DNA of 64,000 nt from Thermoanaerobaculia bacterium (GTDB lineage: Bacteria; Acidobacteriota; Thermoanaerobaculia; Multivoradales; JAGPDF01): positions 1,326,316 through 1,390,315 of the forward strand of contig OY969426.1 in assembly GCA_963699245.1 (NCBI GenBank), given 5' to 3'. This document shows positions 4,639 to 64,000 of the stretch, one piece after another (positions within the stretch are counted from its first letter, which is position 1; every line of letters starts with the position of its first letter). The notes below the pieces were generated by a model. That model was given only the letters and a program-made list of their open reading frames with translations. It had not been told where the DNA came from and searched no databases. A program made the position numbers and the translations under genes.

Positions 4639-4651
4639 GAGGGAGATCTCC

Positions 4652-7733: not shown

Positions 7734-7745
7734 CGCGGGTTCCGT

Positions 7746-10663: not shown

Positions 10664-10692
10664 TTGACCGGAACCCGGGGCGGACTTACGAT
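10664..10692 (+). promoter_or_regulatory. Candidate promoter for the ECF sigma gene (TTGACC-N17-TACGAT); an ECF-like GGAACC element lies immediately after the -35 box
   Basis: ttcTTGACCggaacccggggcggactTACGATccg, followed by AAGGAGG at 10711-10717 and GTG at 10724. Confidence 0.4.
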
Positions 10693-10723
10693 CCGCAGCG
10701 ATCTGGGGGAAAGGAGGCAGGCG

Positions 10724-11314: not shown

Positions 11315-11341
11315 GCCCCCGACCGAGCGCCGGCCGGGTCC

Positions 11342-13753: not shown

Positions 13754-13777
13754 GCCGCCAAGCCCGGCGGCCCGGGA

Positions 13778-14864: not shown

Positions 14865-14873
14865 CCCGAAGGG

Positions 14874-43165: not shown

Positions 43166-46074
<2,909 letters not shown>

Positions 46075-46078
46075 GCGG

Positions 46079-46462
46079 TCACTTCCCTTCCCTGGTGTAG
46101 GCCTCGTAGGCCTCGGCGTCCATCAGCTCGTCGAAGTCCGACGACGACGAGTAGCGGACCTTGACCAGCCACCCCTCGCCGTGCGGGTCCTCGTTGAGGA
46201 CCGCCGGATCGTCCTTCAGCGTCTCGTTGAGCTCGACGATCTCGCCGGCGACCGGGGTGTAGACCTCCGCCACCGCCTTGACCGACTCGATCGTGCCGAT
46301 CTCGCCGCCCGCGTCGTACATGTGCCCGACTTCGGGCAGCTCGACGAAGACCACCTCGCCCAACTCGCTCTGCGCGAATTCGGTGATGCCGAGGACGCAG
46401 ATGTCGCCCTCGAGCTTCACCCACTCGTGCTCGCGCGTGTAGCGGAACTCGCTCGGGTACAT
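46079..46462 (-). CDS. gcvH: Glycine cleavage system H protein
   Basis: [20 protein letters not shown]…[20 protein letters not shown]… (lipoyl-lysine region). It is the C-terminal part of ORF 46079..47218. Confidence 0.85.
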
Positions 46463-46496
46463 GCCGTTCTCCTCTCGCCGCCGCGCGGCGGCTCGT

Positions 46497-47597: not shown

Positions 47598-47754
47598 GCG
47601 CCGGATGATATCGCGCCGTCCGCGCGGCGAGACGGCGCTCACCGTCCCGCTATGGCGCCTTCCCCCGGGAAGTTGTGAGTGGACTCACATCGCCCGCCGC
47701 GGCGTGCCGCTAGGGTCGCCCCATACCTCGCAGCACGCCGTCGGAGGGCGTCTC

Positions 47755-49568
<1,814 letters not shown>

Positions 49569-49592
49569 GCGCCGCGAGAAACGAGAGATCCC

Positions 49593-50982
49593 ATGGCCCA
49601 CTGCGACTGCCAGACCACCCGCCGCGGCTTCGTGGTCGGCTGCTCGGCCGCCATCGCCAGCCTCGCCGGCTCGCGATTCAACTCGCTCGCCTTCGCCCAG
49701 CACGCGGCACCGTCAACGACGAGATCCTCGTGGTGCTCTTCCTGCGCGGCGGCCAGGACGGCCTGAACCTCGTCGTGCCGGTCGCCGGCAACGACCGCGC
49801 CGCCTACCAGGCCCTGCGCGCCCAACCTGCAGATCCCCGCCGCGCAGCTCTCGCCCTACCGCTCGGCACGCATGGCGGGGGCCAACGGCTCGTAGCTCGG
49901 CATCCACCCCGCGGCGGCGCCGCTGCACGAGCTCTTCCAGGCCGGCAAGCTGGCTCGTCGGTCGTCGGCTGCGGCATGGCGGCGAACGAACGCAGCCACT
50001 TCGACTCGATGGACTGGATGGAGCTCGGCACGCCCGGGCGTCAATCGACCGCCACCGGCTGGCTCACCCGCCACCTGCAGTCGGCCTCGAACCTGCCCGC
50101 CGACATCCTGATGCCGTCGCTCTCGGTCGGCGGCATGCAGGCGATGTCGCTGCTCGGCAGCTACGAGACGATCAACCTGTCGAGCCCCTACGACTTCGCG
50201 CTCTACACCGGACCCTGGGCTGGCGCAGACCGACCAGCGCCAGGCGCTGCGCAATCTGGTCGAAGGGGACACCACCTGGCTGCACCAGACGAGCCTGAAG
50301 GCGCTCGACGCGGTCGACATCGTCGAGCTCTACGCGAGCGGCGACTACGTCCCGTCGGGCGGCGTCGTCTATCCGGGCACCTGGTTCGGCGACAACCTGC
50401 AGACCATCGCGCAGATGATCAAGCTCGACCTCGGCCTGCGCATCGCGACGCTCGACCTCGGCGGGTGGGACCACCACGAGAACCAGGACGCGATCTTTAC
50501 GCCTCGCTCGCCGACGAGCTCGCGCAGCGGCCTGCAGCGCCCTCTGGACGGACCTCGACGGCGCGGCGCCGTCAACTACACGCAGCAGCTGACCGTCGTG
50601 GTGATGAGCGAGTTCGGCCGCCGCGTCTGCGAGAACGCCGACCGCGGCACCGACCACGGCCACGGCAACAACATGTTCGTGCTCTCGGGCAACGCGATCG
50701 GCGGCCTGCACGGCACCTGGCCCGGGCTGGCGCCGGCGCAGCTCGACAGACGGCGACGTCGAGGTCACCACCGACTTCCGGCGGGTGCTCTCCGAGATCG
50801 TCGTCCGCCGTCTGGGCAACTCCCGCCTCGACCTCGTCTTTCCCGGCTACAGCGGCTATCAGCCACTCGGCGTGGTGCAGGGCGCCCTGGCGACCCCTCC
50901 GTCGCCGCCGCCGTCGAACCTTCTCTTCCGGGACGGCTTCGAGGGGGGCGACAGCGCCGCCTGGAGCATCTCGACGCCCTGA
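49593..50982 (+). CDS. DUF1501-family protein with a twin-arginine signal, heavily frameshifted in the assembly
   Basis: MAHCDCQTTRRGFVVGCSAAIASLAGSRF (Tat motif); …ILVVLFLRGGQDGLNLVVP…, …LDLGGWDHHENQ…, …MSEFGRRVCENADRGTDHGHGNNMFVLSG… and …VVRRLGNSRLDLVFPGY… lie in different frames. It is adjacent to the DUF1800 gene, the usual partner. Confidence 0.55.
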
Positions 50983-50985
50983 GCG

Positions 50986-51699
50986 TCAGGGCTTGCCGTC
51001 GGGGAGGACCAGCCCGACCGGCGGCAGGCTCTCGCCGCCGGCGTCGAGCAGGTCGATGACATCGGCCTGACGGCGCAGCTCGGCGGTCCAGCGGTCGATC
51101 TCGCTGTCGAGGCGCTCCTCGCGCAACACGGCGCGGATCGACTCGCGGATCTCGTCGATCGGCGGCACCGGCTCGCCGGCGGCCTCGAGCTTCGGCACCA
51201 GGACCTCGTCGTAGTACTTGCGGATCTCCTCGATGCCGACGAAGACGCGCGGCCCGAGACGCTGCTCGACGTAGGCGAGCACCGAGAGCTGACGCGCCAG
51301 GATCTGGCGCACCTCGGCCTCCGTCGAGCCCGAGCCGGGCCAGCTCGGCCTGCCAGGCGCGCTCGTCGGCGAAGCGCGAGCGCAGCCGCTCGAGCTGGCG
51401 GTCGACCTCCTCGAGCGGCGCGTCCTCGAAGCCGAAGCGGGCGATCTCGTGCAGCCGCAGCTTCTGTTCGATCAGGGCGTCGAGCGCCCGCCGCTCGAGC
51501 GCGGCGTCCTCCTCGCCGGGCTGGCGCGGCACGAGGCCGAGGCCGATCGCGCGCTCGAGGTCCGAGAGCAGGATCGGATCCTCGTCGACCACCGCCACGA
51601 CGCGGTCGACCAGCGTCGTCTTGCGACCGGCTCGGTGGCCGCCACGGCAGGAGCGACGGCCAGTCCGACGAGGAGCAGGATCAGGGCGCGGCGCCGCAT
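50986..51699 (-). CDS. Periplasmic SurA-N-domain-like chaperone, frameshifted
   Basis: Signal peptide MRRRALILLLVGLAVAPAVAA, then …VDRVVAVVDEDPILLSDLERAIGLGL… and …VRQILARQLSVLAYVEQRLGPRVF…EIRKYYDE… in two further frames. Confidence 0.5.
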
Positions 51700-51765
51700 C
51701 GTCGCCGCATTGTACGGCCCCGATCGCCGCCGGCGGCGGCGGCGCCGGTGCTACCATCCGCCCCG

Positions 51766-52606
51766 ATGAGCGCGCCGCAAACCGCCATCCGCGTCGGCCT
51801 GGCGCAGATCGATGCCCGCCTGGGCGACGTCGAGGCGAACCTCGAGAAGCACCTGGCGTGGATCGCGCGCGCTCGGAGCGAGGGGGTCGAGCTGCTGCTC
51901 TTCCCCGAGCTCTCGCTCACCGGCTACCGTCTCCTGCACCTGACGCCGCGAGTGGCGCTCCAGCCGGCGACCTCGCCGGTCATCGCCCAGCTCGCCGAGG
52001 CCGCGAACGGCATGTCGGTCGTCGTCGGCTGCGTCGAAGAGGACGAGCGCGGGTTCCTCTTCAACAGCGCGCTGCTGCTCGCAGGAGGGCCGGCTGGCGC
52101 TCACCCACCGCAAGCTCTACCTCCCCACCTACGGCATCTTCCAGGAGGGGCGCTTCTTCAGCGAAGGGAGCCGGCTGGCCCTGCCGCGCATCGCCGGCCA
52201 TCCATTCGGCCTGCTGATCTGCGAGGACTTCTGGCACTCCGATCCGGCCGAGCGGCTGGCGCGCGCCGGCGCCAAGCTGATCGCGCTCGTCTCGGCCGCG
52301 CCCGGCCGCGTCGGCTCCGAGGCGATGCCGCCCTCGCAGGAAGCCTGGGAGTCGCTGACCCGCGCCTCGGCGCTGCTCAACACCTGCTGGATCCTCTACT
52401 GCGGCCGGGTCGGCTGGGAGGAGGGGACCTTCTACACCGGCGGCAGCCACATCGTGCGCCCCGGCGGCGAGGTGCTCGCCCGCGCCCCCTATCTCGACGA
52501 GCACCTGCTGGTCGCCGACATCGACCTGCGCGAGGTCGACCGCCTGCGGTGGCGCCTGCCGATCCTCGCCGCCGAGCGCAACGACATCACGGGACCCGAG
52601 GAGTGA
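51766..52606 (+). CDS. Carbon-nitrogen hydrolase (nitrilase superfamily), frameshifted; probably the glutaminase partner of NadE
   Basis: MSAPQTAIRVGLAQIDARLGDVEANLEKHLAWIARARSEGVELLLFPELSLTGY…; the C-terminal part is in ORF 52325..52606. Confidence 0.6.
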
Positions 52607-52613
52607 GCGCCCC

Positions 52614-53451
52614 GTGATCCGCCGCGAAGAGGTCGCCGCGCGCCTGCGCCTGAACGCCGACCTCGCCGTCGACACGCTGGCGCACTTCCTGCGCGACGGC
52701 GTCGAGCAGGCCGGCGCCCAGGGCCTGGTCGTCGGGCTGTCGGGAGGAGTCGACTCGGCGCTCGCCGCCGCGCTGGCGGTGAAAGCGCTCGGGGCGCCGC
52801 GCGTTCACGCTTTCTTCCTGCCCTACCGCGAATCGAATCCGCTGTCGCGCACGCGACGCCGAGGCGGTCGCCGCGAAACTCGGCCTGGCGCTGCGGACGA
52901 TCGATCTCACGCCGCAGATCGACGCCTACTTCGCGACCGCCGAGCCCGACGCCGACCGCGTGCGGCGCGGCAACAAGATGGCGCGCGAGCGCATGGCGAT
53001 CCTCTTCGACCAGGCGAAGAAGCTCGGCTGCCTGGTGCTCGGCACCTCCAACAAGACCGAGATCCTGCTCGGCTACTCCACCGTCTTCGGCGACAACGCC
53101 TCGTCGCTCAACCCGAACGGGGACCTCTGGAAGGGGCAGGTCTGGCAGCTCGCCGAGCACCTCGGCATCCCGGACTCGGTGCTGCGCAAGAAGCCCTCGG
53201 CCGATCTCTGGCCCGGCCAGACCTCGGAGGGGGAGCTCGGCTTTCTCTACGCGATCGCCGACGAGGTGCTCTACCTGATGTTCGAGCTCGGCCTGCTGCC
53301 GGAGGAGATCGTCGAGCGCGGCTACCCGGCCGAGATCGTCGGCGAGATCGTCCGCCGCGAGAAGCAGAACCGCTACAAGCGACGGCTGATGCTGATCGCG
53401 CGCCTCTCCAACTCCGCCGTCAACCTCGACCGCGAGATTCCGCGCGACTGA
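52614..53451 (+). CDS. nadE: NAD+ synthetase, with one apparent frameshift
   Basis: …GLVVGLSGGVDSALAAALAVKALG… (PP-loop) in ORF 52614..; …MAILFDQAKKLGCLVLGTSNKTEILLGYSTVFGD… in ORF 52960..53451. Confidence 0.75.
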
Positions 53452-53746
53452 GCGCCCGCGCCGCCGCGGCCTCGCCGCGGCGCTGGCGCTCTTCGAGCCG
53501 GTGGCTGTCCGCCGCCCGCAGGTCGAGGCCGTAGACGGCGCGCAGAGTCTCGATTTCGCGCAGCGTCTCGGGCGAGAAGGGCGCCTTGCCCTCGAAGGCG
53601 TGCAGCACGATCCCCTCGAGCAGGTCGCCGAGTGAGAGGTCCTTCAGCTCGGCAACTCCCTTCAGCACCTTGAGCAGGCGTTTCTCGAGCCGAACGCCGG
53701 TCTGCACCCGCTCGACGACGCGGGCCGGCTCCGCTGCCCGCTTCAC
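53420..53746 (-). CDS. Ribbon-helix-helix (CopG/Arc-like) small DNA-binding protein
   Basis: The GTG at 53746 overlaps the upstream gene's TGA (GTGA); …VRLEKRLLKVLKGVAELKDLSLGDLLEGIVLHAF… has the RHH pattern. Confidence 0.45.
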   Translation of the reverse strand: MKRAAEPARVVERVQTGVRLEKRLLKVLKGVAELKDLSLGDLLEGIVLHAFEGKAPFSPETLREIETLRAVYGLDLRAADSHRLEERQRRGEAAAARALSRAESRGRG

Positions 53747-54243
53747 GCCCGGCTCCCGGCGGCGCGCAGGATCTCGCCGGTGCGCAGCCAGTGGTTCATC
53801 GAGCGCTCCCACCAGGCCATGTCGCGCCGGAAGCCCTCCTCCGACGCGGTTGCCTGCAGGAAGTCGCGGCCGGCGGCGCCGAGCGGCGTGAAGGTGTAGG
53901 TGATGTGGACTTCACTGCCGTCCATCCCCCGCGGCGCAACGGCGATCGCGAGCCGCGTCGCCACCAGGCCCGTCGTGACGCGGACGAATTCGACGGTGCC
54001 CGCCGCCGGATCGTGGCGGGAGATCACCCAGACCGTCTCCGGGCGGCCAGAGACCACCGTCCTGAAGACGCAGCCTTCCTCGGCCACGCCGGAGTCCGAA
54101 TGGATCAACTCCATTCCGTCGCTCCAGCCGTCGAGCCACTCGCCTTCGCGGACCGGACAGAGGAGCGGGAAGACCGCCCCCGGCGGCGCCTCGATCTGCT
54201 GCGTGTAGGTGCGCGTGATGCGTCCGGAATCGACGCGGGGCAT
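53743..54243 (-). CDS. SRPBCC-superfamily (polyketide-cyclase/AHSA1-like) hypothetical protein, 166 aa
   Basis: MPRVDSGRITRTYTQQIEAPPGAVFPLLCPVREGEWLDGW… is the C-terminal in-frame segment of ORF 53743..55371. Confidence 0.5.
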   Translation of the reverse strand: MPRVDSGRITRTYTQQIEAPPGAVFPLLCPVREGEWLDGWSDGMELIHSDSGVAEEGCVFRTVVSGRPETVWVISRHDPAAGTVEFVRVTTGLVATRLAIAVAPRGMDGSEVHITYTFTPLGAAGRDFLQATASEEGFRRDMAWWERSMNHWLRTGEILRAAGSRA

Positions 54244-54343
54244 GGCTCCTCCTCGAGAGTGGCGCGCTGGCGACCACGGTACTCTAGTACCTTGGTACAG
54301 CGACGTCAACCCGCTGGAGAGCGAAGAACCACCGGCCCCAAGC

Positions 54344-55371
54344 TCAGCTCGCGGCGAAGAGCCCCGAGTTCCGCTGCTCGAGATCGAGCAGGAAGCGCTT
54401 GCGCCAGAGCCCGCCGCCGTAGCCGCCGAGCTCGCCGCCCTTGTTGACCACCCGGTGGCAGGGGATGACGATGGCGATCCGGTTGCGCCCGTTGGCCTGG
54501 CCGACGGCGCGCGAACCGCCCGGGCGGCCGACGGCGCGCGCCAGGTCCTCGTAAGACCGGGTCTCGCCGTAGGGGATCCGGCGCAGCTCCCCCCAGACCG
54601 ATTCCTCGAACTGGCGTCCCCGGCTCGTCGAGCGGCAGGTCGAAGTCGCGCCGCCTTCCTGCGAAGTACTCGACGAGCTGCGCGCTTGGCGCGCTCGATC
54701 ATGCTTGTTGGTACCCGGCACCAGCGGCCGAGCCAAGCCGCTTGCGCAGCGTCGTCGAGCTGCGTCTCGAGCGCGCGCCGGTCGGTGAACTCGAGCAGCG
54801 CGACCCCCGCTCGGTCGGCGCCGAGCAGCAGCGGCCCGACCGGGCTTTCGACCCAGGCGACGCGCACGCAGTCGGCCTCCTTCGCCTTGCCGGGAGCGGC
54901 GCCGAAGGTCTTCGCGAATGCCTCGCGGAAGCCGCTCGCCGATTCGTAGCCGGCGTCCCAGCCGGCGTCCTCGGGGCGCTCGCCGCGACGGATCAGCTCG
55001 AGCGCGCCCCCCAAGCGGCGGGCGCGGCGATAGGCGTGAAAGGTCATGCCGTACTCCTTCTGGAAGAAGCGGCGCACCCGCGCCGGCTCGATGCCGCGCT
55101 GGCGCAGCTCGGTGTCGTTGAGACGGACCGACGGATCGCGCTCGATCTCGGAGAGCAGCCCCGCCACCCACTCTGGCGGCCGGCCGTCGGTGTCGAGCGG
55201 CCGGCAGCGCTTGCAGGGACGGAAGCCGGCGAACAGCGCCTCTTTCGGCGTCGGGTAGTAGACGACGTTCTCCGGCTTCGGCTTCTTCGCCGGGCAGGAG
55301 GGGCGGCAGAAGATGCCGGTGGTCTTGACCGCGAGGAAGAAGACGCCGTCGTAGGAGGCGTCGCGCGCCAT
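54344..55371 (-). CDS. ada: Bifunctional Ada-type regulator / O6-methylguanine-DNA methyltransferase, frameshifted
   Basis: The N-terminal part (MARDASYDGVFFLAVKTTGIFCRPSCPAKKPKPENV… with AraC HTH) is in ORF 53743..55371. The C-terminal MGMT domain (…IPYGETRSYEDLARAVG…VIPCHRVVNKGGELGGYGGG…) is in ORF 54344..56080. Confidence 0.7.
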
Positions 55372-55498
55372 CGCTGGCGCGCTCCATCTCGCGCTGCGTG
55401 GGGAGGGGAGCGTTCATGCGGTGAACCCGTATTCTGCTCCCGGCCGGCACTGCCACCGATTTTCGGACATCAAATCCGCCGCCTGTAGGATCGCGAAC

Positions 55499-56185
55499 GT
55501 GTCCGGCCGCCTGCTCGTCGTCGCCACGCCGATCGGCAACCTGGAGGATCTCTCGCCGCGCGCGACGAAGGCCCTCGCCGAGGCCGACCTCGTCGCCTGC
55601 GAGGACACCCGTCACTCCGGCCGGCTGCTCGCCCACCTCGGGATCCGGAAGCGTCTGGTCTCGCTCCACGAGCACAACGAGCGGCGGCGGATCCCGGAGC
55701 TGGTCGCCGCGCTCGCCGGGGGCGCGACGATCGCGGTGGTCTCGGACGCCGGCACGCCGCTGCTCTCCGACCCCGGCTTCCCGCTGGTGCGCGCGGCGCT
55801 CGAAGCGGGCGCGACGGGTCGAAGCCGATCCCCGGGTCCGTCGGCGATCCTGACCGCGCTGGTCGCCTCGGGCCTCCCCCCCTACCCGTTCACTTTCGCC
55901 GGCTTCCCGCCGCCGAAGAGCGGCAAGCGCCGCACCTTCTACCGCCGCTTCGGCTCGCTCGGTCACACGCTGGTCGTCTACGAATCCCCGCACCGGCTGG
56001 TCGCCAGCCTGGAGGACGCCGTCGCCGAGCTGGGCGCCGACCGCCCCGCCGCGCTGGCGCGCGAGCTGACCAAGCTGCACGAGGAAATCGTGCGCGGCCC
56101 GCTGGGCGAGCTCGCCGCCTGGGCGCGCGAGCGCAAGTTGCTCGGCGAGTTCGTGTTGGTCGTGGCCGGCGCCGAAGCGGGCTAA
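55499..56185 (+). CDS. rsmI: 16S rRNA (cytidine1402-2'-O)-methyltransferase
   Basis: GTG start VSGRLLVVATPIGNLEDLSPRATKALAEADLVACEDTRHSGRLL…. Confidence 0.75.
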   Translation: MSGRLLVVATPIGNLEDLSPRATKALAEADLVACEDTRHSGRLLAHLGIRKRLVSLHEHNERRRIPELVAALAGGATIAVVSDAGTPLLSDPGFPLVRAALEAGATGRSRSPGPSAILTALVASGLPPYPFTFAGFPPPKSGKRRTFYRRFGSLGHTLVVYESPHRLVASLEDAVAELGADRPAALARELTKLHEEIVRGPLGELAAWARERKLLGEFVLVVAGAEAG

Positions 56186-56221
56186 CTCACCGGCGCCGGC
56201 GAAGATTCGTCGCGCGCTGGA

Positions 56222-56614
56222 TCAGAGCTGGACGAAACGGTGCCCGGCGGCCGCGAGGGTCGATTCCGCGCGCGTGCGGTCGGCGGACCGGACCAGCAGA
56301 TAGTCGGTGTCGAAGGTCGCGAGCGAGAAGATCGGGATGTGCGCGGCCGCGAGCGGCGCGGCGATCGAGGCCAGAACGCCGGTGAGCGAGAGATCCATGC
56401 TCCCCGCCACCCGCAGCAGCGCGTAGGGCCCTTCGGTACGGCTCTCTTCCGGCGCTTCCTCGGCAAGACAGACGACCGACAGCTCGTCGACCGTGCGGGT
56501 GATCGACATGAAGGGTCCGCGCGGCATCGAGCTCAGGCGCGCGTGCGGATCGAGCTGGCAGATGGCGTACTCCCCCTCGATCCAGTGCAGCTCGAGGCGA
56601 TGGTTCGTGGTCAC
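56222..56614 (-). CDS. ACT-domain protein
   Basis: 130 aa; …ICQLDP…ITRTVDELSVVC…LTGVLASIAAPLAAAHIPIFSLATFDTDYLLV…. Confidence 0.55.
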   Translation of the reverse strand: MTTNHRLELHWIEGEYAICQLDPHARLSSMPRGPFMSITRTVDELSVVCLAEEAPEESRTEGPYALLRVAGSMDLSLTGVLASIAAPLAAAHIPIFSLATFDTDYLLVRSADRTRAESTLAAAGHRFVQL

Positions 56615-56617
56615 GGC

Positions 56618-57709
56618 TCAGAGCCTTTCGGAGATCCAGCAGCCGCCGAGGACGCGGCTCCCCTGGTAGAAGACCGCCGCCTGCCCGGGCGCGACGCCGC
56701 GCTGCGGTTCGGCGAAGTCGACCTCGACGCGCCCCTCGGGGCGCGGGCGGACGAGCGCCGGCACGCCGGCGTGGCGCGAACGGATCTTCACCGTCGCCTC
56801 GACCGCATCCGCCGGCGGCGGGCCGATCCAGTGCAACCGCTCGCCGGCGAGGCCGGGCGCCATCAGATCCGCCTCGGCGCCGACCACCACCGCGTTCTCC
56901 TCCGGCACGACCTGGAGCACGTAGAGCCGGCGGTCCGAGGGGACGCCGAGCCCGCGGCGCTGGCCGACGGTGTAGCGGTAGTAGGGCTCGGCGTGGCCGA
57001 GCTCGCGCCCTGCGCGGTCGAGGACGCGCGCCGGCTCGGCCGCCACGGCGCCGAAACGCTCCGGTCGCGCCGCCGCCTCGCGCTCGACGAACTCGCGAAC
57101 TTCGCCGTCCACGAAGCAGACCTCCATCGACTCGTCCTTGTCGCAGACCACGAGGCCGGCGCGGCGAGCGATCTCGCGCACCTCGACCTTGGTCCGCTCG
57201 CCGAGCGGGAAGCGGGTGAAAGCGAGCTGCTCCGGCGTCAGCTCGAAGAGGAAATAGCTCTGGTCCTTGTCGGCGTCGGCCCCGGCGTGCAGCTCCGGTC
57301 CTTCGGGGCCTTCGACGATGCGCGCGTAGTGGCCGGTGGCGAGCGCCGAAGCGCCGATCCGCCGCGCTTTCTCGATCAGCAGGTCGAACTTGACGAAGGT
57401 GTTGCAGCGCACGCAGGGCGACGGAGTGCGGCCGGCCAGGTAGTCCTCGACGAAGGGATCGACGACGTCGCGCCGGAACTCCTCGTCCATGCGCAGCGTG
57501 TAGTGCGGAATGCCGGCCTGCGCCGCGGCGCGCCGCGCGTCACCGAGGTCGAGCGCGCCGCAGCAGCGGCCGTTGCGGACCTCGGTCGAGCGGTCCCAGA
57601 GCAGCATCGAGAGGCCGACCACCGGCTCGCCGCCGCGCGACAGCAGCCAGGCGGCGACGCTCGAGTCGAGCCCGCCGCTCATCGCCACCGCGGTCAGGTT
57701 GGACGACAT
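56618..57709 (-). CDS. mnmA: tRNA-specific 2-thiouridylase
   Basis: MSSNLTAVAMSGGLDSSVAAWLL (PP-loop SGGxDS)…CVRCNTFVKF…. Confidence 0.85.
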   Translation of the reverse strand: MSSNLTAVAMSGGLDSSVAAWLLSRGGEPVVGLSMLLWDRSTEVRNGRCCGALDLGDARRAAAQAGIPHYTLRMDEEFRRDVVDPFVEDYLAGRTPSPCVRCNTFVKFDLLIEKARRIGASALATGHYARIVEGPEGPELHAGADADKDQSYFLFELTPEQLAFTRFPLGERTKVEVREIARRAGLVVCDKDESMEVCFVDGEVREFVEREAAARPERFGAVAAEPARVLDRAGRELGHAEPYYRYTVGQRRGLGVPSDRRLYVLQVVPEENAVVVGAEADLMAPGLAGERLHWIGPPPADAVEATVKIRSRHAGVPALVRPRPEGRVEVDFAEPQRGVAPGQAAVFYQGSRVLGGCWISERL

Positions 57710-57713
57710 CGAC

Positions 57714-58940
57714 TCAGCTCCGCGCCGGCGCCAGGGCGCGCAGCGACGCGACCTCGGCCGCGAGGAGGGCAAGGAAGTCGTCGATCTCTTCGACCGTGTT
57801 CTCGGTTCCGAAGGAGATGCGCAGCGAGGCGAGCGCCACTTCGACCGGCAGCCCGAGCGCGAGCAGCATGGCGCTCGGCTGCAGCGTCCCCGAGCCGCAG
57901 GCGGCGCCGGTCGACACGGCGTAGCCGGCGAGGTCGAGGCGCATCATCAACTCCTGGTTGACGGTGCCGAGGAACGCCGCGTTGGTCGTGTGCGGCACGC
58001 GCGGCGCGCCGGCGCCGTGGACCACGACGTCGCCGATCGCGCCGAGGCCGCGCTCGAAGCGGTCGCGCAATTCGGCGAGTCGCGCTGCGCGCGCGGGAAG
58101 CTCCTGGCGCGCCAGCTCGCAGGCGCGGCCGAAGCCGACCAGCGCCGGCACGTTGGCGGTCGAAGCCCGGCGCTGGCGCTCCTGGCCGCCGCCGACGAGG
58201 AAGGAATCGAAGGCGGCGCCGGGACGGACCCAGAGCGCCGCGGCGCCGAGCGGCCCGTGGAACTTGTGCGCGCCGAGCGTCAGGTAGTCGACGCCGAGCT
58301 CCTGCGCCGACACCGGGATCTTCCCCGCCGCCTGCACCGCGTCGCAGAGCACCGGAATGCCGCGCTCGGCGCAGAGCCGCGCCACTTCGGCCACCGGCTG
58401 GATCGTGCCGAGCTCGTTGTTGACCAGCATCAGCGCCACGAAACGCGTCTCGGGTCCGATCGCCGCCGCGAAGCCTTCGACCGGGACGACGCCGTCGCTG
58501 GCCGGGGCGATCCGACGGATTTCGATGCCGGACGAGGGTCCCCACGCTTCGAGCGCGCGCGGAATCGACGGATGCTCGATTCCCGAGATCACTGCCTGGC
58601 CGCCCCGGCCGGCGCGCAGGAGCGCCGCTACCACGGCATTGTTGGCCTCGGTGCCGGAAGCGGTGAAGACGATCTCGTCCGGCTGCGCGTCGACGAGCGA
58701 CGCGACGGCCGCCCGCGCCGCTTCGACCGCCTCGCGCGCCGCCTGGCCGAAGCGATGGGCCGAGGCGGCGTTGCCCCACATTCCGTCGAGCCAGGGGAGC
58801 ATCGCTTCGCGCACCCGCGGATCGAGCGGAGTCGTGGCATTGTTGTCGAAATAGACGGACCGGACGGCGCTCACGGCGGCGATACTAGCGCCCCTCCGGC
58901 ACCGGAACTGCAGGCGAGGAGCCGGATGACGATTCGACAC
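57714..58940 (-). CDS. Cysteine desulfurase (NifS/IscS-type class V aminotransferase)
   Basis: …VYFDNNATTPLDPRVREAMLPWL…SGIEHPS…LTLGAHKFHGP…; the start may be downstream of the listed ATG. Confidence 0.8.
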   Translation of the reverse strand: MSNRHPAPRLQFRCRRGASIAAVSAVRSVYFDNNATTPLDPRVREAMLPWLDGMWGNAASAHRFGQAAREAVEAARAAVASLVDAQPDEIVFTASGTEANNAVVAALLRAGRGGQAVISGIEHPSIPRALEAWGPSSGIEIRRIAPASDGVVPVEGFAAAIGPETRFVALMLVNNELGTIQPVAEVARLCAERGIPVLCDAVQAAGKIPVSAQELGVDYLTLGAHKFHGPLGAAALWVRPGAAFDSFLVGGGQERQRRASTANVPALVGFGRACELARQELPARAARLAELRDRFERGLGAIGDVVVHGAGAPRVPHTTNAAFLGTVNQELMMRLDLAGYAVSTGAACGSGTLQPSAMLLALGLPVEVALASLRISFGTENTVEEIDDFLALLAAEVASLRALAPARS

Positions 58941-58969
58941 CCGCGACGCCCTCTCGTCCCGGGCCTGGG

Positions 58970-61456
58970 TTGCTGGCGGCCTTGACGCTGGCGCTGGCGA
59001 CGGCCGCCGCGGCGGGACCGCCCCCCATTCCCCCCGATCTGCCGGCGGAGTACCGCCAGTGGCTCGAGGAGGTCGAGCCGATCCTCTCGCCCGCCGAGCG
59101 CGCGGCCTTCCTCAAGCTCGAGAAGGACTACCAGCGCGACGCTTTCATCGAGAAGTTCTGGCAGGTGCGCGACCCCTACCCGGACACGGCGCGCAACGAG
59201 GCGCGCGACGCCTGGGAGTCGCGCCTCGCCCAGGCGCGGGAGGAGTTCCCCAGCCTCGACGAGGAGCGGGCGCGGCTCTTCCTGCTCAACGGCCCCCCGA
59301 CCGCACGGCTCAAGGCGAGGTGCACCTCGCTCTGGCCGATGGACGTCTGGGCCTATGCGCCGACCGAGCGCATTCCCGAGCCGCTGGTGCTGATCTTCGT
59401 GCAGCGCTTCGGGCAGGGGCGCTATTCGCTCTGGGTCCCGCAGGAGGGGCTCGCCGCGCTCTTCCAGTTCGCGCCGCCCGACGGTCGCCAACGACCGGCT
59501 GCTGCAGGAGATCGCGGACGGCTGCAGCCAGACCAACGGGCTGGCGGGCGCCATCGCCTCGGTGATGCGACAGCAGCAGATGCACTACACCCTGCTCGTC
59601 TCGCGCGCCGAGCGGCCGGTGGAGCCCCCCTCGCGCGAGTGGGTGGCGACCTTCAACTCCTATTCGACCGACCTCGCCGCCGGCGTGCCGCCGCTCCCCG
59701 CCGAGCTCGGCGTGAGCTTCCCCGGCCGCCGCCAGAACCGGACGATCGTGCAGGCGACGCTGGCCGTGCCGGCGGCCTCGACCGGCGTCGCCGCGCTCGA
59801 GGGGAGCCGCTCCTACAACTTCCTGCTCAACGGCGAGATCCTGCTCGGCAAGAAGCTCTTCGACGCCTTCCGCTACAAGTTCGACCTGCCGGCGGCGAGC
59901 GTCACCACGCCGTCGATCCCGCTCGTCTTCGAGCGCTTCCTCCGCCCCGGCACCTACAAGCTGATCGTCAAGCTCGAGGACCTGAACGGCCACGGCTTCT
60001 TCCGGGAGGAGCGCGTCCTCGAAGTGCCCCAGCTCGGCGACCAGCCGGTGACCGCGACGATCGACGACGAGACCTCGAAGCTGCTCGTCGAGGCCAACGC
60101 CGCGCTCTCGACGCTCGACAACACGATCCAGATCGTCCGCCCGCGCAACGAGATCCAGTCGGGACTGGTGCGCTTCGACACGCTGATCACCGGCAGCGCC
60201 ATCAGCGAAGTCGAGTTCTGGCTCGACGGCCGCTCGATCCTGCGCAAGAACCGGCCGCCCTTCTCGGTCGAGCTCGACCTCGGCGACGTGCCGCGCACGC
60301 GCACGCTGCGCGCCGTCGGCTTCGACGCCGAGGGGCACGATGTGGCCTCCGACGAGGAGCTGCTCAACGCCAGCCCGCACCGCTTCTCCGTCCGGCTGGT
60401 CGAGCCGCGCCGGGGCAAGCGCTACACGCAGAGCCTGCGCGCCGAGGCGAAGGTCGAGCTGCCCGAGGAGGGCACCGTCGAGCGGGTCGAGTTCTACCTC
60501 AACGAAACCCTGGTCTCGACGCTCTACCAGGAGCCCTGGACGCAGCCCGATCCTGCTGCCGCCCGAACGGCGAGATCGCCTACGTGCGCGCCGTCGCCTA
60601 CCTGACCGACGGCAACTCGACCGAGGACCTCGTCTTCGTCAACGCGCCCGACAACCTCGAGGAGCTCGAGATCCAGTTCGTCGAGCTCTTCACCGCCGTT
60701 CTCGACCGCGACCACCGGCCGGCGCCCGGGCTCGAGCGCTCCGACTTCAAGGTCACCGAGGACGGCGTGCCGCAGGAGCTGACGCGGTTCGAGAAGGTCG
60801 AGAGCCTGCCGGTGCACGTCGCCGTGCTGCTCGACACCTCGGCGTCGATGGAGCCCAACCTCACGGCGGCGCGCGACGCCGCCCTGCGCTTCTTCCAGCA
60901 GGTCGTGACGCCCAAGGACCGCGCCGCGCTGATCCCGTTCAACGACCGGCCGTCGCTGGCGGTGAAGATGACCAACCGCCTCGACGACCTCGGCGCCGGG
61001 CTCGCCGGCCTCAAGGCCGAGCGCGGCACGGCGCTCTACGATTCGGTCGTCTTCTCGCTCTTCTACTTCAACGGCATCAAGGGGCAGCGCGCGCTGCTGG
61101 TGCTGTCGGACGGCAAGGACGAGAACAGCAAGTTCCGCTTCGACCAGACGCTCGACTTCGCCCGCCGCGCCGGCGTGGCGATCTACACCATCGGCCTGGA
61201 CATCTCGCGCGGCGAGTTCGAGACCCGGCGGGTGCTCAAGACGCTGGCCGACGAGACCGGCGGGCGCAGCTTCTTCGTCTCCGACGGCGCCGAGCTCCCC
61301 GCGATCTACGACGACATCCAGCGCGAGCTCCGCTCGCGCTACCTGCTCGCCTACCAGTCGACCAACACCGATCGCAGCCTCAAGTTCCGCTCGGTCGAGG
61401 TCAAGGTGGACAAGCCGGGGCTCGAGGCGAAGACGATGCGCGGCTACTACCCCTGA
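58970..61456 (+). CDS. Large secreted protein with a C-terminal VWA domain (TIGR03436-like VWFA-related Acidobacterial family), paralog 1, with two apparent frameshifts
   Basis: Signal peptide MLAALTLALATAAAAG; …FLKLEKDYQRDAFIEKFWQVRDPYPDT…; the middle is in ORF 59562..60605; the C-terminal VWA (…VAVLLDTSASM…LVLSDGKDE…) ends in …TMRGYYP. Frame changes occur near 59490 and 60550. Confidence 0.7.
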   Translation: MLAALTLALATAAAAGPPPIPPDLPAEYRQWLEEVEPILSPAERAAFLKLEKDYQRDAFIEKFWQVRDPYPDTARNEARDAWESRLAQAREEFPSLDEERARLFLLNGPPTARLKARCTSLWPMDVWAYAPTERIPEPLVLIFVQRFGQGRYSLWVPQEGLAALFQFAPPDGRQRPAAAGDRGRLQPDQRAGGRHRLGDATAADALHPARLARRAAGGAPLARVGGDLQLLFDRPRRRRAAAPRRARRELPRPPPEPDDRAGDAGRAGGLDRRRRARGEPLLQLPAQRRDPARQEALRRLPLQVRPAGGERHHAVDPARLRALPPPRHLQADRQARGPERPRLLPGGARPRSAPARRPAGDRDDRRRDLEAARRGQRRALDARQHDPDRPPAQRDPVGTGALRHADHRQRHQRSRVLARRPLDPAQEPAALLGRARPRRRAAHAHAARRRLRRRGARCGLRRGAAQRQPAPLLRPAGRAAPGQALHAEPARRGEGRAARGGHRRAGRVLPQRNPGLDALPGALDAARSCCRPNGEIAYVRAVAYLTDGNSTEDLVFVNAPDNLEELEIQFVELFTAVLDRDHRPAPGLERSDFKVTEDGVPQELTRFEKVESLPVHVAVLLDTSASMEPNLTAARDAALRFFQQVVTPKDRAALIPFNDRPSLAVKMTNRLDDLGAGLAGLKAERGTALYDSVVFSLFYFNGIKGQRALLVLSDGKDENSKFRFDQTLDFARRAGVAIYTIGLDISRGEFETRRVLKTLADETGGRSFFVSDGAELPAIYDDIQRELRSRYLLAYQSTNTDRSLKFRSVEVKVDKPGLEAKTMRGYYP

Positions 61457-63930
61457 TGAGCCGCGCCCCGCTCGGCGCGCTCGCGCTCGGCGCAGCGCTG
61501 GCGCTCGCCGCGGCGGCGCGCGGCGAGCAGCCGGCCGCCGCGCCGCCCGAAGCGGCGCCGGGCTTCCTCGCCGAGGTGGAGCCGCTCCTCACCCCGGCCG
61601 AACGCGAGGCTTACCTCAAGCTCGGCCGCCCCTACCAGCGCGACGCCTTCGAGCGCCGCTTCTGGCAGGTGCGCGATCCCTTCCCCGAAACACCGGTCAA
61701 CGAGTTCGCCGTGCGCTGGCGCGAGCGCGCGCCCGAAGCGCTGACGCGCTGGGGAAGCCTCGCCGACGCCCGTGCCGTCGCCTTCGCCGCCGCCGGCCCG
61801 CCGCTCTCCACCCTGCGCGTCACCTGCCCCGACCTGCTGCTGCCGGCCGAGATCTGGAGCTACGAGAACGTCGGCCGGCTGCGCGGCGGCTTCGCGGTCG
61901 TCTTCGTCGCCGAGGGGATGAGCGAGAGGTCGCGCTATCGCGCCTGGAATCCGCGCGAGGGCGCCCTCTCCCTCGCCACCGCCAGCGCGGCCGGCTCGCG
62001 CTCCGCGGGGCAACTTCTGTCCTCGGTCGCCGCCGCCTGCGGGCGCGGCGAGCAGATCGCCTCGATGATTCAGCTCGCCGTCGACTGGGACGCGGTCGTG
62101 CAGCGCGCGCAGCTCCTGCCGCACCCGAACGACGAATGGGTGCGCACCTTCGCCTCCCTTTCGACCGATCTGCCGCCAGGCGCCACGCCCCTGCCGGCGG
62201 AGGTCGAGATCCGGTTCGCCGGGCGACGCGGGCTGCGCGTCGTGAGCGAAGGGGCGATCCGCCTGCTCGACCCCCCCGCCGCCCCCTCGATGCTGACGCT
62301 CGACGGCGAGATCCTGCGCGGCGAGGAGCTCTTCGACCACTTCCGCTACCGCTACCAAACCGCGGCGGCGGCGAGCACGCCGCTGCTCTTCGAACGGCCG
62401 CTGCGGCCCGGCAGCTACCGCCTGATCCTCCGCCTGCACGAGGAAGAGGGGGAGCGCTACTTCCGCGACGAACGCGACCTGGTCGTCCCGGCGGAAGCGC
62501 TCGCCGCGGCCCCCGCCGGCGCGCCGCCGCCGGCGGCCGGCGCCAGCCCGTCCGTCGCCGCGCCTCTCGCCGCCGCGACGGACGTCGCCGCGGGCACCGA
62601 GCCCGGAGTCCGCATCCTCGTGCCGGCCAACGACCTGCTGACCGGCAAGCTGCGCGTCGAGGCGCTGCCGCGCGGCGAGGGGGTCGCGGCGGTGGCCTTC
62701 ACGCTCGACGGCCGGCCGGTGATGACCAAGAAGCGCCCCCCTTTCGGCGCCGAGCTCGACCTCGGGCGCACGCCGCGCCTGCACCGGATCGGCGCCATCG
62801 CCCTCGACGCCGGCGGCGCCGAGCTCGGCCGCGACGAGGCGCTGGTCAACGGCGGCCCGCACCGCTTCGCGGTTCGCCTCGTCGAGCCGCAGAGCATTCC
62901 GGAGGGCGCCGACCGGGTCGAGGCCCGCGCGACGGTCGACCTGCCGGAAGGCGAGAGCCTCGACCGGCTCGAGTTCCACGTCAACGACAAGCTCTACGCG
63001 ACGCTCTATCAGGAGCCTTTCACCCAGGCGCTGCCCCTGCCCCGGGGGGCGCGCGTGGCCTGGATCCGCGTCGTCGCCTTCCTCGCCGATGGCGGCGCCG
63101 CCGAGGACGTGCGGATGGTCGGTGCGGGCGAGATGACGACCGCGATCGACGTCGATTTCGTCGAGCTCTACGCCAGCATGCTCGACCGGCGGGGCCGCTT
63201 CGTGGAGGGACTCGCGGCCGGCGACGTCGAGGTGTTCGAGAACAGGAAGCCGCAGGAGATCCGCCGCTTCGAGCCGGTCGCCGACCTGCCGATCCACGCC
63301 GGCGTGCTGCTCGACACCTCGGCCTCGATGGCCGAGGAGCTCGGCGAGGCCGAGCGGGCCGCGCAGCGCTTCTTCGCCGAGGTGCTGACCGACCGCGACC
63401 GCGCCTGCGTGATGACCTTCGCCGACGAGCCGCGCCTCGCGGTGCGCTTCACCCGCAGCCCCGAGGTGCTCGCCGGCGGCCTCGCCGGCCTCGAGGCGCG
63501 CGGCGAGACCAAGCTCTGGGACGCGGTCGCTTTCGCGCTCCACTATTTCAGCGGCATCCGCGGCAAGCGGGCGGTGGTCCTGCTCACCGACGGCCTCGAC
63601 TCCGGGAGCAGGTTCAAGTTCGAGGAAGTCCTCGAATACGCCCGCCGCACCGGCGTCGCGATCTACATCGTCGGCCTCGATGTCCCCGTCAATCCGCCCG
63701 ATGTCGGCATGCTGATCGACCGGCTCGCGCGCGAGACCGGCGGACGCTCCTTCCGCATCTCGCGCGCGGTCGAGCTCGGCCCCGTCTACCGCGAAATCCA
63801 GCGCGAGTTGCGCGCGCAGTACCTGATCGCCTACCAGTCCGACGCCACCGGCGAGGCCTTCCGGGAGATCGAGGTGCGGGTGAAGCGCCCGGGCGTCGAG
63901 GTGCGGACCGTGCGAGGCTATTACCCCTGA
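61456..63930 (+). CDS. Large secreted protein with a C-terminal VWA domain (TIGR03436-like), paralog 2, intact
   Basis: MSRAPLGALALGAALALAAAARG (signal peptide); …YLKLGRPYQRDAFERRFWQVRDPFPET…; …HAGVLLDTSASM…VVLLTDGLDSGS… ends in …TVRGYYP. Its ATG overlaps the TGATGA double stop of paralog 1. Confidence 0.75.
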   Translation: MSRAPLGALALGAALALAAAARGEQPAAAPPEAAPGFLAEVEPLLTPAEREAYLKLGRPYQRDAFERRFWQVRDPFPETPVNEFAVRWRERAPEALTRWGSLADARAVAFAAAGPPLSTLRVTCPDLLLPAEIWSYENVGRLRGGFAVVFVAEGMSERSRYRAWNPREGALSLATASAAGSRSAGQLLSSVAAACGRGEQIASMIQLAVDWDAVVQRAQLLPHPNDEWVRTFASLSTDLPPGATPLPAEVEIRFAGRRGLRVVSEGAIRLLDPPAAPSMLTLDGEILRGEELFDHFRYRYQTAAAASTPLLFERPLRPGSYRLILRLHEEEGERYFRDERDLVVPAEALAAAPAGAPPPAAGASPSVAAPLAAATDVAAGTEPGVRILVPANDLLTGKLRVEALPRGEGVAAVAFTLDGRPVMTKKRPPFGAELDLGRTPRLHRIGAIALDAGGAELGRDEALVNGGPHRFAVRLVEPQSIPEGADRVEARATVDLPEGESLDRLEFHVNDKLYATLYQEPFTQALPLPRGARVAWIRVVAFLADGGAAEDVRMVGAGEMTTAIDVDFVELYASMLDRRGRFVEGLAAGDVEVFENRKPQEIRRFEPVADLPIHAGVLLDTSASMAEELGEAERAAQRFFAEVLTDRDRACVMTFADEPRLAVRFTRSPEVLAGGLAGLEARGETKLWDAVAFALHYFSGIRGKRAVVLLTDGLDSGSRFKFEEVLEYARRTGVAIYIVGLDVPVNPPDVGMLIDRLARETGGRSFRISRAVELGPVYREIQRELRAQYLIAYQSDATGEAFREIEVRVKRPGVEVRTVRGYYP

Positions 63931-64000
63931 TGCCCCGGCTTCTCCTCGCCTCCGGCTCGCCGCGGCGGCGCGCGCTGCTCGGCCGGCTCGGGTTCCCGTT
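63930..64000 (+). CDS. maf: Maf-like nucleoside-triphosphate pyrophosphatase, 5' fragment at the window edge
   Basis: MPRLLLASGSPRRRALLGRLGFP…. Confidence 0.6.
   Translation, partial: MPRLLLASGSPRRRALLGRLGFP

Follow-up and report, generated by a model that had tools for sequence, protein, structure and literature searches.

A conserved tandem pair of GWxTD-like/Ig-like/VWA proteins in Thermoanaerobaculia, with probable sequencing errors in the upstream gene

Two long genes of nearly equal size stand head to tail at the end of a stretch of DNA from a Thermoanaerobaculia bacterium, followed directly by a maf-like gene. The whole stretch, 64,000 nucleotides in length, is referred to here as the window, and all positions are counted within it. 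The locus raises the questions of whether these genes are a genuine pair, whether both are intact, and what their products might do. Our overall reading, to which we assign a probability of about 60%, is that they form an anciently duplicated, co-transcribed pair encoding GWxTD/Ig-like/VWA proteins, which would be exported and would bind in a MIDAS-dependent manner, and that the breaks in the frame of the upstream gene are errors in the sequence. The locus is laid out as follows.

57714 to 58874, minus strand: cysteine desulfurase gene (NifS/IscS-like), divergently transcribed, with MnmA beyond it; the conserved left-hand neighbour of the pair
58970 to 61456, plus strand: gene 1, the upstream (g1-type) paralog, as a mechanical open reading frame with a TTG start, 828 aa as sequenced
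61456 to 63930, plus strand: gene 2, the maf-proximal (g2-type) paralog, ATG start, 824 aa in one intact frame
63930 to 64000, plus strand: start of the Maf-like gene, its ATG overlapping the stop of gene 2 (TGATG); the gene continues past the end of the window

The original prediction was of tandem, collinear paralogs of about 825 aa, and the two proteins do align from end to end, with 42% identity over 814 columns, and not over the VWA domain only; at this length, the term "giant" that had been applied to them is not warranted. The window contains two copies of this protein type and no others. The genes had been described as abutting, with an ATG inside TGATGA, and the junction indeed reads CCC TGA TGA, the ATG of gene 2 (61456-61458) overlapping the first TGA. 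Overlaps of the form TGATG occur both between gene 1 and gene 2 and between gene 2 and maf, in the window as well as in locus L030, a JGI metagenome contig that is the closest DNA (85% nucleotide identity to the window). A scan of positions 58500-64000 revealed no terminator-like site and no promoter-like site, the promoter scan being one for sigma-70 consensus promoters only. The two genes are real tandem paralogs, anciently duplicated and probably co-transcribed.

Every length difference between gene 2 and L030 is a multiple of three. Gene 1 had also been taken as an intact frame, but it needs three or four frame corrections. A tblastn search with gene 2, together with a three-frame view, places its coding sequence in frame 2 from 58970 to about 59477, in frame 0 from there to about 60546, in frame 1 for 16 nt (encoding ILLPP) and then in frame 2 again, and a frame model based on GC3 gives the same breakpoints, with the first boundary at 59482. 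The changes fall at three single-base insertions.

59476 to 59481, plus strand: insertion 1, GCCCGA context, frame 2 to frame 0; 1-nt gap in L030 at 59480
60545 to 60550, plus strand: insertion 2, GCCCGA context, frame 0 to frame 1; 1-nt gap in L030 at 60546
60561 to 60567, plus strand: insertion 3, GCCCGAA context, frame 1 to frame 2; 1-nt gap in L030 at 60566

When one base is removed at each of the three sites, gene 1 yields an 827-aa product that is collinear with gene 2 and the orthologs, and the corrected peptide at insertion 2, WTQPILLPP, resembles WSQPIVLPP of the ortholog. The sequence blocks reported as shared by the two proteins are all present (FWQVRDPYPDT in gene 1 and FWQVRDPFPET in gene 2, HRFSVRLVEP and HRFAVRLVEP, LRPGTYKLI and LRPGSYRLI, and LLDTSASM and RGYYP in both), but HRFSVRLVEP and LRPGTYKLI of gene 1 lie out of frame with its start and stop codons because the coding frame shifts. 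The open reading frame runs uninterrupted all the same, since codons read in the wrong frame start with the GC-rich third position of the true ones; stops in this frame are lacking from the middle of gene 1, and in the corresponding frame from the whole of gene 2. At 72% G+C, one cannot conclude from an uninterrupted open reading frame of 828 codons that a gene is intact.

The 5' end of gene 1 appears to be affected as well.

58926 to 58969, plus strand: probable true 5' end of gene 1, with an ATG and the basic n-region of a signal peptide MTIRHPRRPLVPGLG, out of frame with the open reading frame

No Shine-Dalgarno-like sequence precedes the TTG at 58970, and AGGAG stands 4 nt upstream of the ATG at 58926. 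An in-frame ATG is found in L030 at the position aligned with 58926, basic n-regions are present in the orthologs, and at 58972 the window and L030 differ in length by 5 nt, that is, 6 minus 1. These features point to the ATG at 58926 as the probable true start, with a 1-nt deletion, the fourth indel, near the GGG run at 58967-58969; the corrected product would then be 842 aa long, as compared to 827 aa from the TTG.

The closest ortholog of gene 1 (P0266, encoded at L030) is intact, 831 aa long and 85% identical. Comparison of the window with L030 brings out about 17-20 further 1-nt insertions beyond gene 1, in or near housekeeping genes (GcvP, GcvT, a nitrilase-family gene, NAD synthase, Ada-MGMT and RsmI), at a rate of about one single-base insertion per kb over the roughly 15 kb that can be aligned. 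Elsewhere in the window, the DUF1800 and SBP_bac_5 genes are each split over three frames. Since some 20 more insertions fall in housekeeping genes, the frame breaks of gene 1 are most likely sequencing or assembly errors in the form of single-base insertions, and a pseudogene is not favoured. The errors would have to be uneven, with 3-4 indels in the 2.5 kb of gene 1 and none in the roughly 5 kb of the flanking MnmA, NifS and gene 2. This clustering is what one would expect if gene 1 were a genuine pseudogene that decayed after the duplication and left gene 2 as the sole functional paralog, but several observations make such decay very unlikely: indels aside, gene 1 retains its 85% identity to an intact ortholog; its corrected frame is free of stops and keeps every family-invariant residue; the GC3 coding signal stays strong through the shifted segments; and like insertions occur in core genes such as GcvP, GcvT, NAD synthase, Ada-MGMT, DUF1800 and SBP_bac_5, where they are not plausibly biological.

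The CCCGA context common to all three insertion sites could also bring to mind programmed ribosomal frameshifts that tune the output of full-length protein. The orthologs, at 54-85% identity, are however in a single frame at exactly these positions, similar insertions are found in unrelated genes without the CCCGA motif, and we know of no precedent for three successive +1 shifts in one gene, so that the likelihood of such a device is close to nil. GCCCGA was considered as a general error motif and rejected, as it lies within 40 nt of 4 of 28 candidate frame changes, where about 4 of 28 would be met by chance (14% of the window being that near to a GCCCGA site). At the gene 1 insertions, it may reflect a local homopolymer effect. 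A 91% identical fragment, P0015 at locus L029, spans only the 3' part of gene 2 and maf and is thus of no use for checking the gene 1 sites. With errors as the preferred explanation and about one insertion per kb in the alignable part of the window, frame correction must precede gene-level readings of this assembly.

The C-terminal part of both proteins belongs to a catalogued family.

60671 to 61450, plus strand: TIGR03436 module of gene 1 (corrected residues 567-826), a VWA core with flanking beta elements, 177 bits
63142 to 63924, plus strand: TIGR03436 module of gene 2 (residues 563-823), 162.6 bits
63313 to 63327, plus strand: MIDAS motif DTSAS of gene 2 (D620, S622 and S624), with T685 at 63508-63510 and D712 at 63589-63591

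Membership of TIGR03436 had been suggested, and both proteins score far above its curated cut-off of 81.25 bits, covering positions 4-322 (gene 2) and 7-322 (corrected gene 1) of the 324 in the model. The proposed check against the Pfam VWA family (PF00092) gave matches of 40.7 and 43.2 bits (threshold 23.8), and VWA_2 (PF13519) was matched too, at 49 and 37.1 bits (threshold 27). In gene 2, a beta lead-in precedes the VWA core (residues 613-786), and the module closes with a C-terminal beta element that has RGYYP at its end. The MIDAS motif (DxSxS...T...D) noticed at the outset is complete: DTSAS is present in both window proteins (residue 621 in corrected gene 1), and D620, S622, S624, T685 and D712 are invariant in an alignment of 99 homologs, with both paralog types represented. 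In the full-length AlphaFold model (pLDDT 89.2, pTM 0.80), residues 613-786 form the alternating strands and helices of a Rossmann-like VWA fold. Foldseek matched this domain to ANTXR2, integrin I-domains, BatB and TFIIH p44 at E values of about 1e-9, with target-normalised TM-scores of up to 0.8 and, for isolated-domain matches, an rmsd of 2-4 angstroms.

The centre of the proteins had been called Ig-like, and both the profile matches and the model support this description.

62188 to 63120, plus strand: central region of gene 2, with a beta-sandwich at residues 245-345, a disordered Ala/Pro linker at 350-380 and two further beta-sandwiches at 384-465 and 470-555 (boundaries from AlphaFold secondary structure and pLDDT)

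Big_7 (PF17957) matches corrected gene 1 at residues 473-524 with 33.5 bits (threshold 24.1). The Big_7 model finds no match in gene 2, yet beta-sandwiches are still predicted there at 384-465 and 470-555, for a total of three, and a profile search of the PDB matched FN3-like and Ig modules at profile positions 400-570.

At the N-terminus, we find a second catalogued domain, one which the original prediction had treated as an unnamed module.

59063 to 59356, plus strand: GWxTD-like domain of gene 1 (corrected residues 32-129), TIGR04514 at 46.9 bits, cut-off 28
61552 to 62160, plus strand: N-terminal alpha/beta domain of gene 2 (residues 33-235), including the GWxTD-like part (38-136), Cys124 and Cys195

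This block can be assigned to TIGR04514 as a divergent GWxTD domain, most clearly in gene 1; gene 2 reaches 27.4 bits with the model, 0.6 under the cut-off of 28, over a region homologous to that of gene 1. The Pfam GWxTD family (PF20094) matches neither the whole proteins at E <= 0.01 nor their N-terminal regions at E <= 10, and no Pfam family at all is found on the N-terminal 320-340 residues at E values up to 10. PF20094 does match the canonical repeat of a relative, P0146, in which two canonical GWxTD repeats are followed by a divergent module like that of gene 1 and gene 2. The name motif itself is degenerate, reading WGSLADARA in gene 2 and FPSLDEERA in gene 1 as compared to GGWRTDAG and GGWRSDAG in P0146. 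In the AlphaFold model, the N-terminal domain of gene 2 is predicted with a pLDDT of 93.4; Foldseek returned no PDB neighbour for it, and a profile search no PDB sequence match for residues 1-400. Across the 99 homologs, E49, R62, R73 and R261 are invariant in the N-terminal region and D74, N82, E83 and E132 are at least 90% conserved.

Such a cluster of invariant charged residues at the N-terminus might suggest an enzyme, for instance one acting on a cell-envelope polymer, with the VWA domain serving only to anchor or target it, and as no solved structure resembles this fold, any function is conceivable for it. We nevertheless consider an enzyme improbable, given the failure to match any Pfam catalytic family at E values up to 10 or any PDB sequence over residues 1-400, and the fact that no invariant His, Ser or Cys nucleophile is evident beyond a probable disulfide pair. 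In addition, the GWxTD module recurs two or three times in tandem in longer relatives (1000-1400 aa), a pattern one would sooner associate with binding modules; apart from these repeats, the longer proteins contain no fused enzyme or anchor domain that would be informative.

Both proteins would act beyond the inner membrane.

61456 to 61521, plus strand: Sec-type signal peptide of gene 2 MSRAPLGALALGAALALAAAAR, read from the sequence, without a lipobox cysteine

In the AlphaFold model, residues 7-20 of this segment form a helix of low confidence, and the stretch after it is disordered. Among the 99 homologs, Cys195 does not vary and Cys124 is at least 90% conserved, and corrected gene 1 has exactly two cysteines; Cys124 and Cys195 probably form one extracytoplasmic disulfide. 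Searches of NCBIfam and Pfam at E <= 0.01 gave no family match for a C-terminal sorting signal (PEP-CTERM, T9SS CTD or LPXTG). The C-terminus, ...VEVRTVRGYYP, is part of the TIGR03436 match, which extends to position 322 of 324, and its predicted structure is one of beta strands and not a helix. We infer from the signal peptides that both proteins are exported by the Sec route.

How do these proteins compare to known systems? With the TIGR03436 "VWFA-related acidobacterial domain" proteins of the same phylum they share the C-terminal ~260 residues almost end to end. Typical TIGR03436 members are short (about 300-350 aa) and consist of a signal peptide and the module, and they form a paralog family in Solibacter usitatus and Acidobacterium capsulatum; here, in contrast, the module stands behind a GWxTD-like domain and three beta-sandwiches, in a conserved two-gene locus of Thermoanaerobaculia. 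The likeness to GWxTD proteins (TIGR04514, PF20094) covers the N-terminal ~100 residues, although the name motif is degenerate here (SLADA, SLDEE) and PF20094 is unmatched. The closest solved bacterial VWA domains are those of the aerotolerance proteins BatA/BatB from Bacteroides and of the related 4rck from Vibrio fischeri, with 4rck the nearest in sequence (E = 4e-11) and 3ibs and 4jdu in fold. Bat proteins are anchored in the membrane, and their genes belong to a moxR-DUF58-bat operon, whereas the proteins described here have no membrane anchor and are encoded among nifS, mnmA and maf; membership of BatA/BatB was rejected on the scores with NF047508 (16.6 and 26.3 bits, cut-off 380). Integrin I-domains and ANTXR2/CMG2 have the same fold and a complete DxSxS...T...D MIDAS, whose metal ion is completed by an acidic residue of the ligand. 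These are eukaryotic receptors with only 14-20% identity, and the likeness is one of mechanism, not of family. Many homologs bear the JGI name "Ca-activated chloride channel homolog" (an annotation of the E. coli YfbK type), a label derived from nothing more than the VWA domain that they have in common with CLCA1 (PDB 6pyo). CLCA membership was likewise rejected (TIGR00868, 17.7 bits over the VWA region only, cut-off 900.85), and nothing points to channel regulation.

The named homologs and loci are from Thermoanaerobaculia, Thermoanaerobaculaceae, Holophagales, Acidobacteria or Acidobacteriota only, so that the connection to Solibacter drawn earlier is not borne out among named relatives. Relatives of gene 2 on genome contigs are at most 51% identical, and the proteins of the window are 66-85% identical to their nearest metagenomic counterparts. 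Two or three tandem copies are present in most of 28 Thermoanaerobaculia/Acidobacteriota loci, and in a neighbour-joining tree, the upstream copies group apart from the maf-proximal ones. The neighbours are conserved too, with nifS-mnmA upstream and maf downstream (Maf is found in L029, L030 and at least 17 other loci); genes for MoxR, DUF58 or Bat proteins are absent from this conserved context. On these comparisons, the arrangement of the pair followed by maf is conserved across Thermoanaerobaculia and stems from an old duplication. One lineage (L007, L008 and L025) has a single copy within the stretch of DNA examined, and a complex of the two paralogs can thus not be obligatory.

Taken together, these features suggest that the paralogs most likely leave the cytoplasm by the Sec route, are produced together and act as MIDAS-dependent binding proteins in the cell envelope. 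Each product is made up of a Sec signal peptide without a lipobox, a divergent GWxTD alpha/beta domain, three beta-sandwiches, the MIDAS VWA domain and a beta element ending in GYYP. After export of both paralogs to the periplasm or the cell surface, the divalent cation of the VWA MIDAS would capture a partner protein or a matrix ligand through one of its acidic residues, the GWxTD domain may offer a second binding surface, and the beta-sandwich domains may act as spacers. The overlapping stop and start codons would couple the synthesis of the paralogs at roughly equal levels, which fits, without proving, a joint complex of the two.

It is possible, although we lean against it, that the paralogs instead work independently, each with its own ligands, as surface or matrix adhesins or as VWA parts of a Bat-like, MoxR-dependent system, their adjacency being a result of tandem duplication only. 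The existence of the single-copy lineage and of three copies in some genomes would agree with independent roles, as would the expansion of VWA families by duplication in Acidobacteria, the analysed paralog groups of Solibacter usitatus including "von Willebrand factor, type A" (PMC3174227). On the other hand, the two clades have stayed adjacent while diverging deeply, and their stop and start codons overlap in both the window and L030; a Bat-like system is further opposed by the lack of MoxR, DUF58 or Bat neighbours and by the low scores with the BatA model. At the other extreme, one can imagine the paralogs as a Thermoanaerobaculia-specific envelope hetero-oligomer or head-to-tail polymer, in which each MIDAS would receive its completing acidic residue from the GWxTD domain of the next subunit. 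The invariant E49 and the at least 90% conserved D74 and E83 are candidates for such a contact. Although we hold this scheme to be a long shot, it would, if true, mean that the GWxTD domain, with a fold not solved before, serves as a dedicated ligand of the MIDAS, and would provide the first function for the GWxTD and TIGR03436 families.

In the library that was searched, no paper treats GWxTD as a protein domain (two text matches were unrelated clinical case reports) and none mentions TIGR03436 or "VWFA-related"; the one paper of relevance is that on the paralog groups of Solibacter usitatus (PMC3174227). As new members of two catalogued but unstudied families, the genes in themselves add little biologically. 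The GWxTD-like domain is nonetheless modelled with high confidence (pLDDT 93) and yet has no neighbour among solved structures. Finally, Thermoanaerobaculia have kept this architecture, and its place between nifS-mnmA and maf, as a stable core feature, and this makes the locus a reasonable target for finding the function of the GWxTD and TIGR03436 families.

The two tandem paralogs lie in DNA of 72% G+C (window 58970-63930) and are followed by a Maf-like gene.

58970..61456, forward: gene 1 (upstream paralog), mechanical ORF, TTG start, 828 aa
61456..63930, forward: gene 2 (maf-proximal paralog), ATG start, 824 aa
63930 to beyond the window end, forward: Maf-like gene, TGATG overlap with the gene 2 stop

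The junction of the two paralogs reads CCC TGA TGA, the gene 2 ATG (61456-61458) overlapping the first stop. The stop/start overlaps (TGATG) at 61454-61458 and 63928-63932 have counterparts at 12496 and 14946-14949 in L030, the closest related locus. A scan found no terminator-like site between gene 1 and gene 2, and no further paralog was found in the window. Every motif quoted for the two genes in the original prediction is present in the sequence; of the two intact genes claimed there, gene 2 is indeed intact and gene 1 needs frame correction. When the gene 2 protein was compared with gene 1 DNA by tblastn, the N-terminal 170 and C-terminal 300 residues shared one frame and the central ~360 residues lay in another, with both HRFSVRLVEP and LRPGTYKLI of gene 1 inside the shifted segment. 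A three-frame view shows the frame changing where the sequence reads GCCCGA (59476, 60545 and 60561), the 16-nt stretch between the last two encoding ILLPP in the third frame, and a GC3-based frame model independently gave the same boundaries. The ORF is not interrupted because codons in the wrong frame begin at the GC-rich third position; this frame is free of stops in the central part of gene 1, as is the equivalent frame over the full 2.5 kb of gene 2. Deletion of one base at each of the three sites yields an 827-aa protein that aligns with gene 2 without rearrangement (42% identity, 814 columns) and matches orthologs across both junctions (WTQPILLPPNGEIAYV versus WSQPIVLPPAEQVAYV). Two spurious ORFs of great length overlap the pair, one of 1196 aa (60340-63930, forward) in which the gene 2 frame extends back through gene 1, and one of 698 aa (61447-63543, reverse) antisense to gene 2. 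At this G+C content, the length of an ORF is by itself no evidence that it is coding.

L030, the nearest relative, comes from a 473-kb JGI metagenome contig; its DNA is 85% identical and its genes are arranged as in the window. An intact 831-aa ortholog of gene 1 (P0266) is followed there by a further copy of 817 aa and by maf, linked to one another by overlapping stop/start codons. Global DNA alignment placed exactly three 1-nt window insertions in gene 1 (59480, 60546 and 60566) and a 5-nt length difference at 58972, equal to 6 minus 1; in gene 2 all length differences were multiples of three. Together with ATG 58926, which has an AGGAG box 4 nt before it and aligns with an in-frame ATG of L030, the 5-nt difference points to a fourth indel, which would sever the true gene 1 start (MTIRHPRRPLVPGLG...) from the ORF. 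Programmed frameshifting in gene 1 was ruled out by the single-frame orthologs.

Similar lesions appear elsewhere in the window. Extending the L030 alignment over ~15 kb revealed ~17 further single-base window insertions but just two single-base deletions. GcvP, GcvT, a nitrilase-family gene, NAD synthase, Ada-MGMT and RsmI hold most of these insertions; in Ada and RsmI, alignment noise may account for some differences that lie close together.

Window stretches aligned with L030 (~20 single-base insertions, 2 single-base deletions)
44722-47624
51006-53452
54343-60566

Counting the gene 1 sites, each aligned kb carries roughly 1.3 insertions, and GcvP, GcvT, the nitrilase-family gene, NAD synthase, Ada-MGMT and gene 1 are all broken by insertions. 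That gene 1 is a true pseudogene is therefore very improbable, as single-base insertions of the same type also hit core metabolic genes, which cannot all be pseudogenes. From this comparison, the gene 1 frameshifts are most likely insertion-biased assembly or sequencing errors.

Other genes of the window bearing on frame or alignment
33521-35000, forward: SBP_bac_5 gene (peptide or nickel ABC transporter substrate-binding), split over three frames
48058-50980, forward: Pfam-confirmed DUF1800 gene in three frames, then a gene with a DUF1501 match
53743-54243, reverse: small SRPBCC/Polyketide_cyc2 gene (30.5 bits)
54343-55373, reverse: Ada-type methyltransferase gene, broken by several 1-nt insertions (54611 to 54754)

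The pieces of the DUF1800 and SBP_bac_5 genes match consecutive parts of their Pfam models (positions 2-80, 105-293 and 303-351 for SBP_bac_5), and the permease-like hydrophobic ORFs after the latter gene change frame too. The Ada-type gene is intact in L030 (355 aa; Ada_Zn_binding, HTH_18 and MGMT); its N- and C-terminal halves lie in two separate long ORFs in the window (53743..55371 and 54344..56080). L030 lacks the whole block 47624-51006, which is thus an insertion relative to that locus; nothing in the syntenic L030 region aligns with 53452-54343, the stretch that holds the SRPBCC/Polyketide_cyc2 gene. The GCCCGA context is common to all three internal gene 1 insertions and occurs once per ~550 bp in the window, and chance is an unlikely source of this coincidence. 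The motif is not enriched at other candidate frame changes in the window (4/28); a homopolymer or local basecalling effect may be the cause.

Both proteins are members of TIGR03436 (acidobact_VWFA) and carry a VWA domain with its metal site (MIDAS). The family assignment of the original prediction was correct: matches at residues ~565-825 score 162.6 bits for gene 2 and 177 bits for corrected gene 1 (cut-off 81.25 bits) and span nearly the whole model. Pfam detected VWA and VWA_2 in both and Big_7 in gene 1. In a 99-sequence alignment (gene 2 numbering), the MIDAS residues D620, S622, S624, T685 and D712, the N-terminal residues E49, R62, F65, W70, R73, W134, C195 and W228, and the terminal G-Y-x-P are invariant. 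The N-terminal block, presented earlier as an unnamed module, already has a name, the GWxTD domain (TIGR04514, residues ~32-136; 46.9 bits for corrected gene 1, 27.4 for gene 2, cut-off 28). The Pfam GWxTD model matched neither protein, even at permissive thresholds, and the G-W-x-T-D motif is degenerate in both. Because TIGR04514 is passed once and narrowly missed once, and the Pfam match and name motif are absent, profile evidence places both proteins as divergent relatives of the GWxTD family. In P0146, a relative of 1402 aa, two canonical repeats (GGWRTDAG) precede the divergent module. Whatever JGI names their relatives bear, the proteins are neither Bat proteins nor CLCA homologs.

AlphaFold model of the gene 2 protein (pLDDT 89.2, pTM 0.80)
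N-terminus: signal-peptide helix
33-235: alpha/beta domain
245-345: beta-sandwich
350-380: disordered Ala/Pro linker
384-465 and 470-555: two more beta-sandwiches
613-786: VWA core, preceded by a beta lead-in
after the core: C-terminal beta element

Foldseek of the full model against the PDB matched only VWA domains (E around 1e-9), those of ANTXR2, integrin I-domains, BatB and TFIIH p44. A profile search of PDB sequences agreed and gave no match for residues 1-400.

Named homologs all come from Thermoanaerobaculia or other Acidobacteriota. For the N-terminal module, 767 cluster representatives were found (E <= 0.001), most of them 800-900 aa long. Across 28 genome loci, the usual layout is rsmI / (ACT) / mnmA and nifS on one strand and, facing nifS-mnmA, two or three tandem paralogs, then maf. 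Upstream (gene 1-type) copies separate from maf-proximal (gene 2-type) copies in a neighbour-joining tree, so the duplication is older than the split of these lineages. Several Thermoanaerobaculia genomes have three tandem copies: loci L018, L002, L004, L022 and L021 (each at locus coordinates ~4500-12500) and L024 (~8100-15900). Where the copies were full-length, the tree places the additional one in the gene 1 clade. Split HSPs in the long-read MAGs L021, L022 and L024 (MFD isolates) suggest that these three-copy loci carry frameshifts of their own. In the DNA stretches examined, the lineage of L007, L008 and L025 shows just one copy.

An extracytoplasmic location is suggested by the Sec-type signal peptides, which have no lipobox, by two conserved cysteines of the N-terminal domain, and by the fact that neither a membrane anchor nor a recognisable C-terminal sorting domain is present. 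Given the complete, invariant MIDAS, the VWA domain would capture an acidic group on a partner in a cation-dependent manner, for which integrin I-domains and ANTXR2 are the model systems. Invariant charged and aromatic residues cluster in the GWxTD-like domain, which makes it an obvious candidate for a second binding site, and the sandwich domains would serve as spacers. A gene 2-type copy followed by maf was seen in most loci examined, and from the stop/start overlap in the window and L030, translation of an exported VWA protein appears coupled to that of Maf, a cytoplasmic nucleotide pyrophosphatase. We found no functional explanation for this pairing.

Our literature search found no paper dealing with the TIGR03436 or GWxTD family; one paper includes a VWA family in its analysis of Solibacter paralog groups (PMC3174227). 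The proteins belong to a known, functionally uncharacterised kind, the members being new and the families already catalogued. Judging from the single-copy lineage, a hetero-complex of the paralogs would not be obligatory; coupled translation and the long co-retention of the two clades suggest that the paralogs act jointly, possibly as such a complex.
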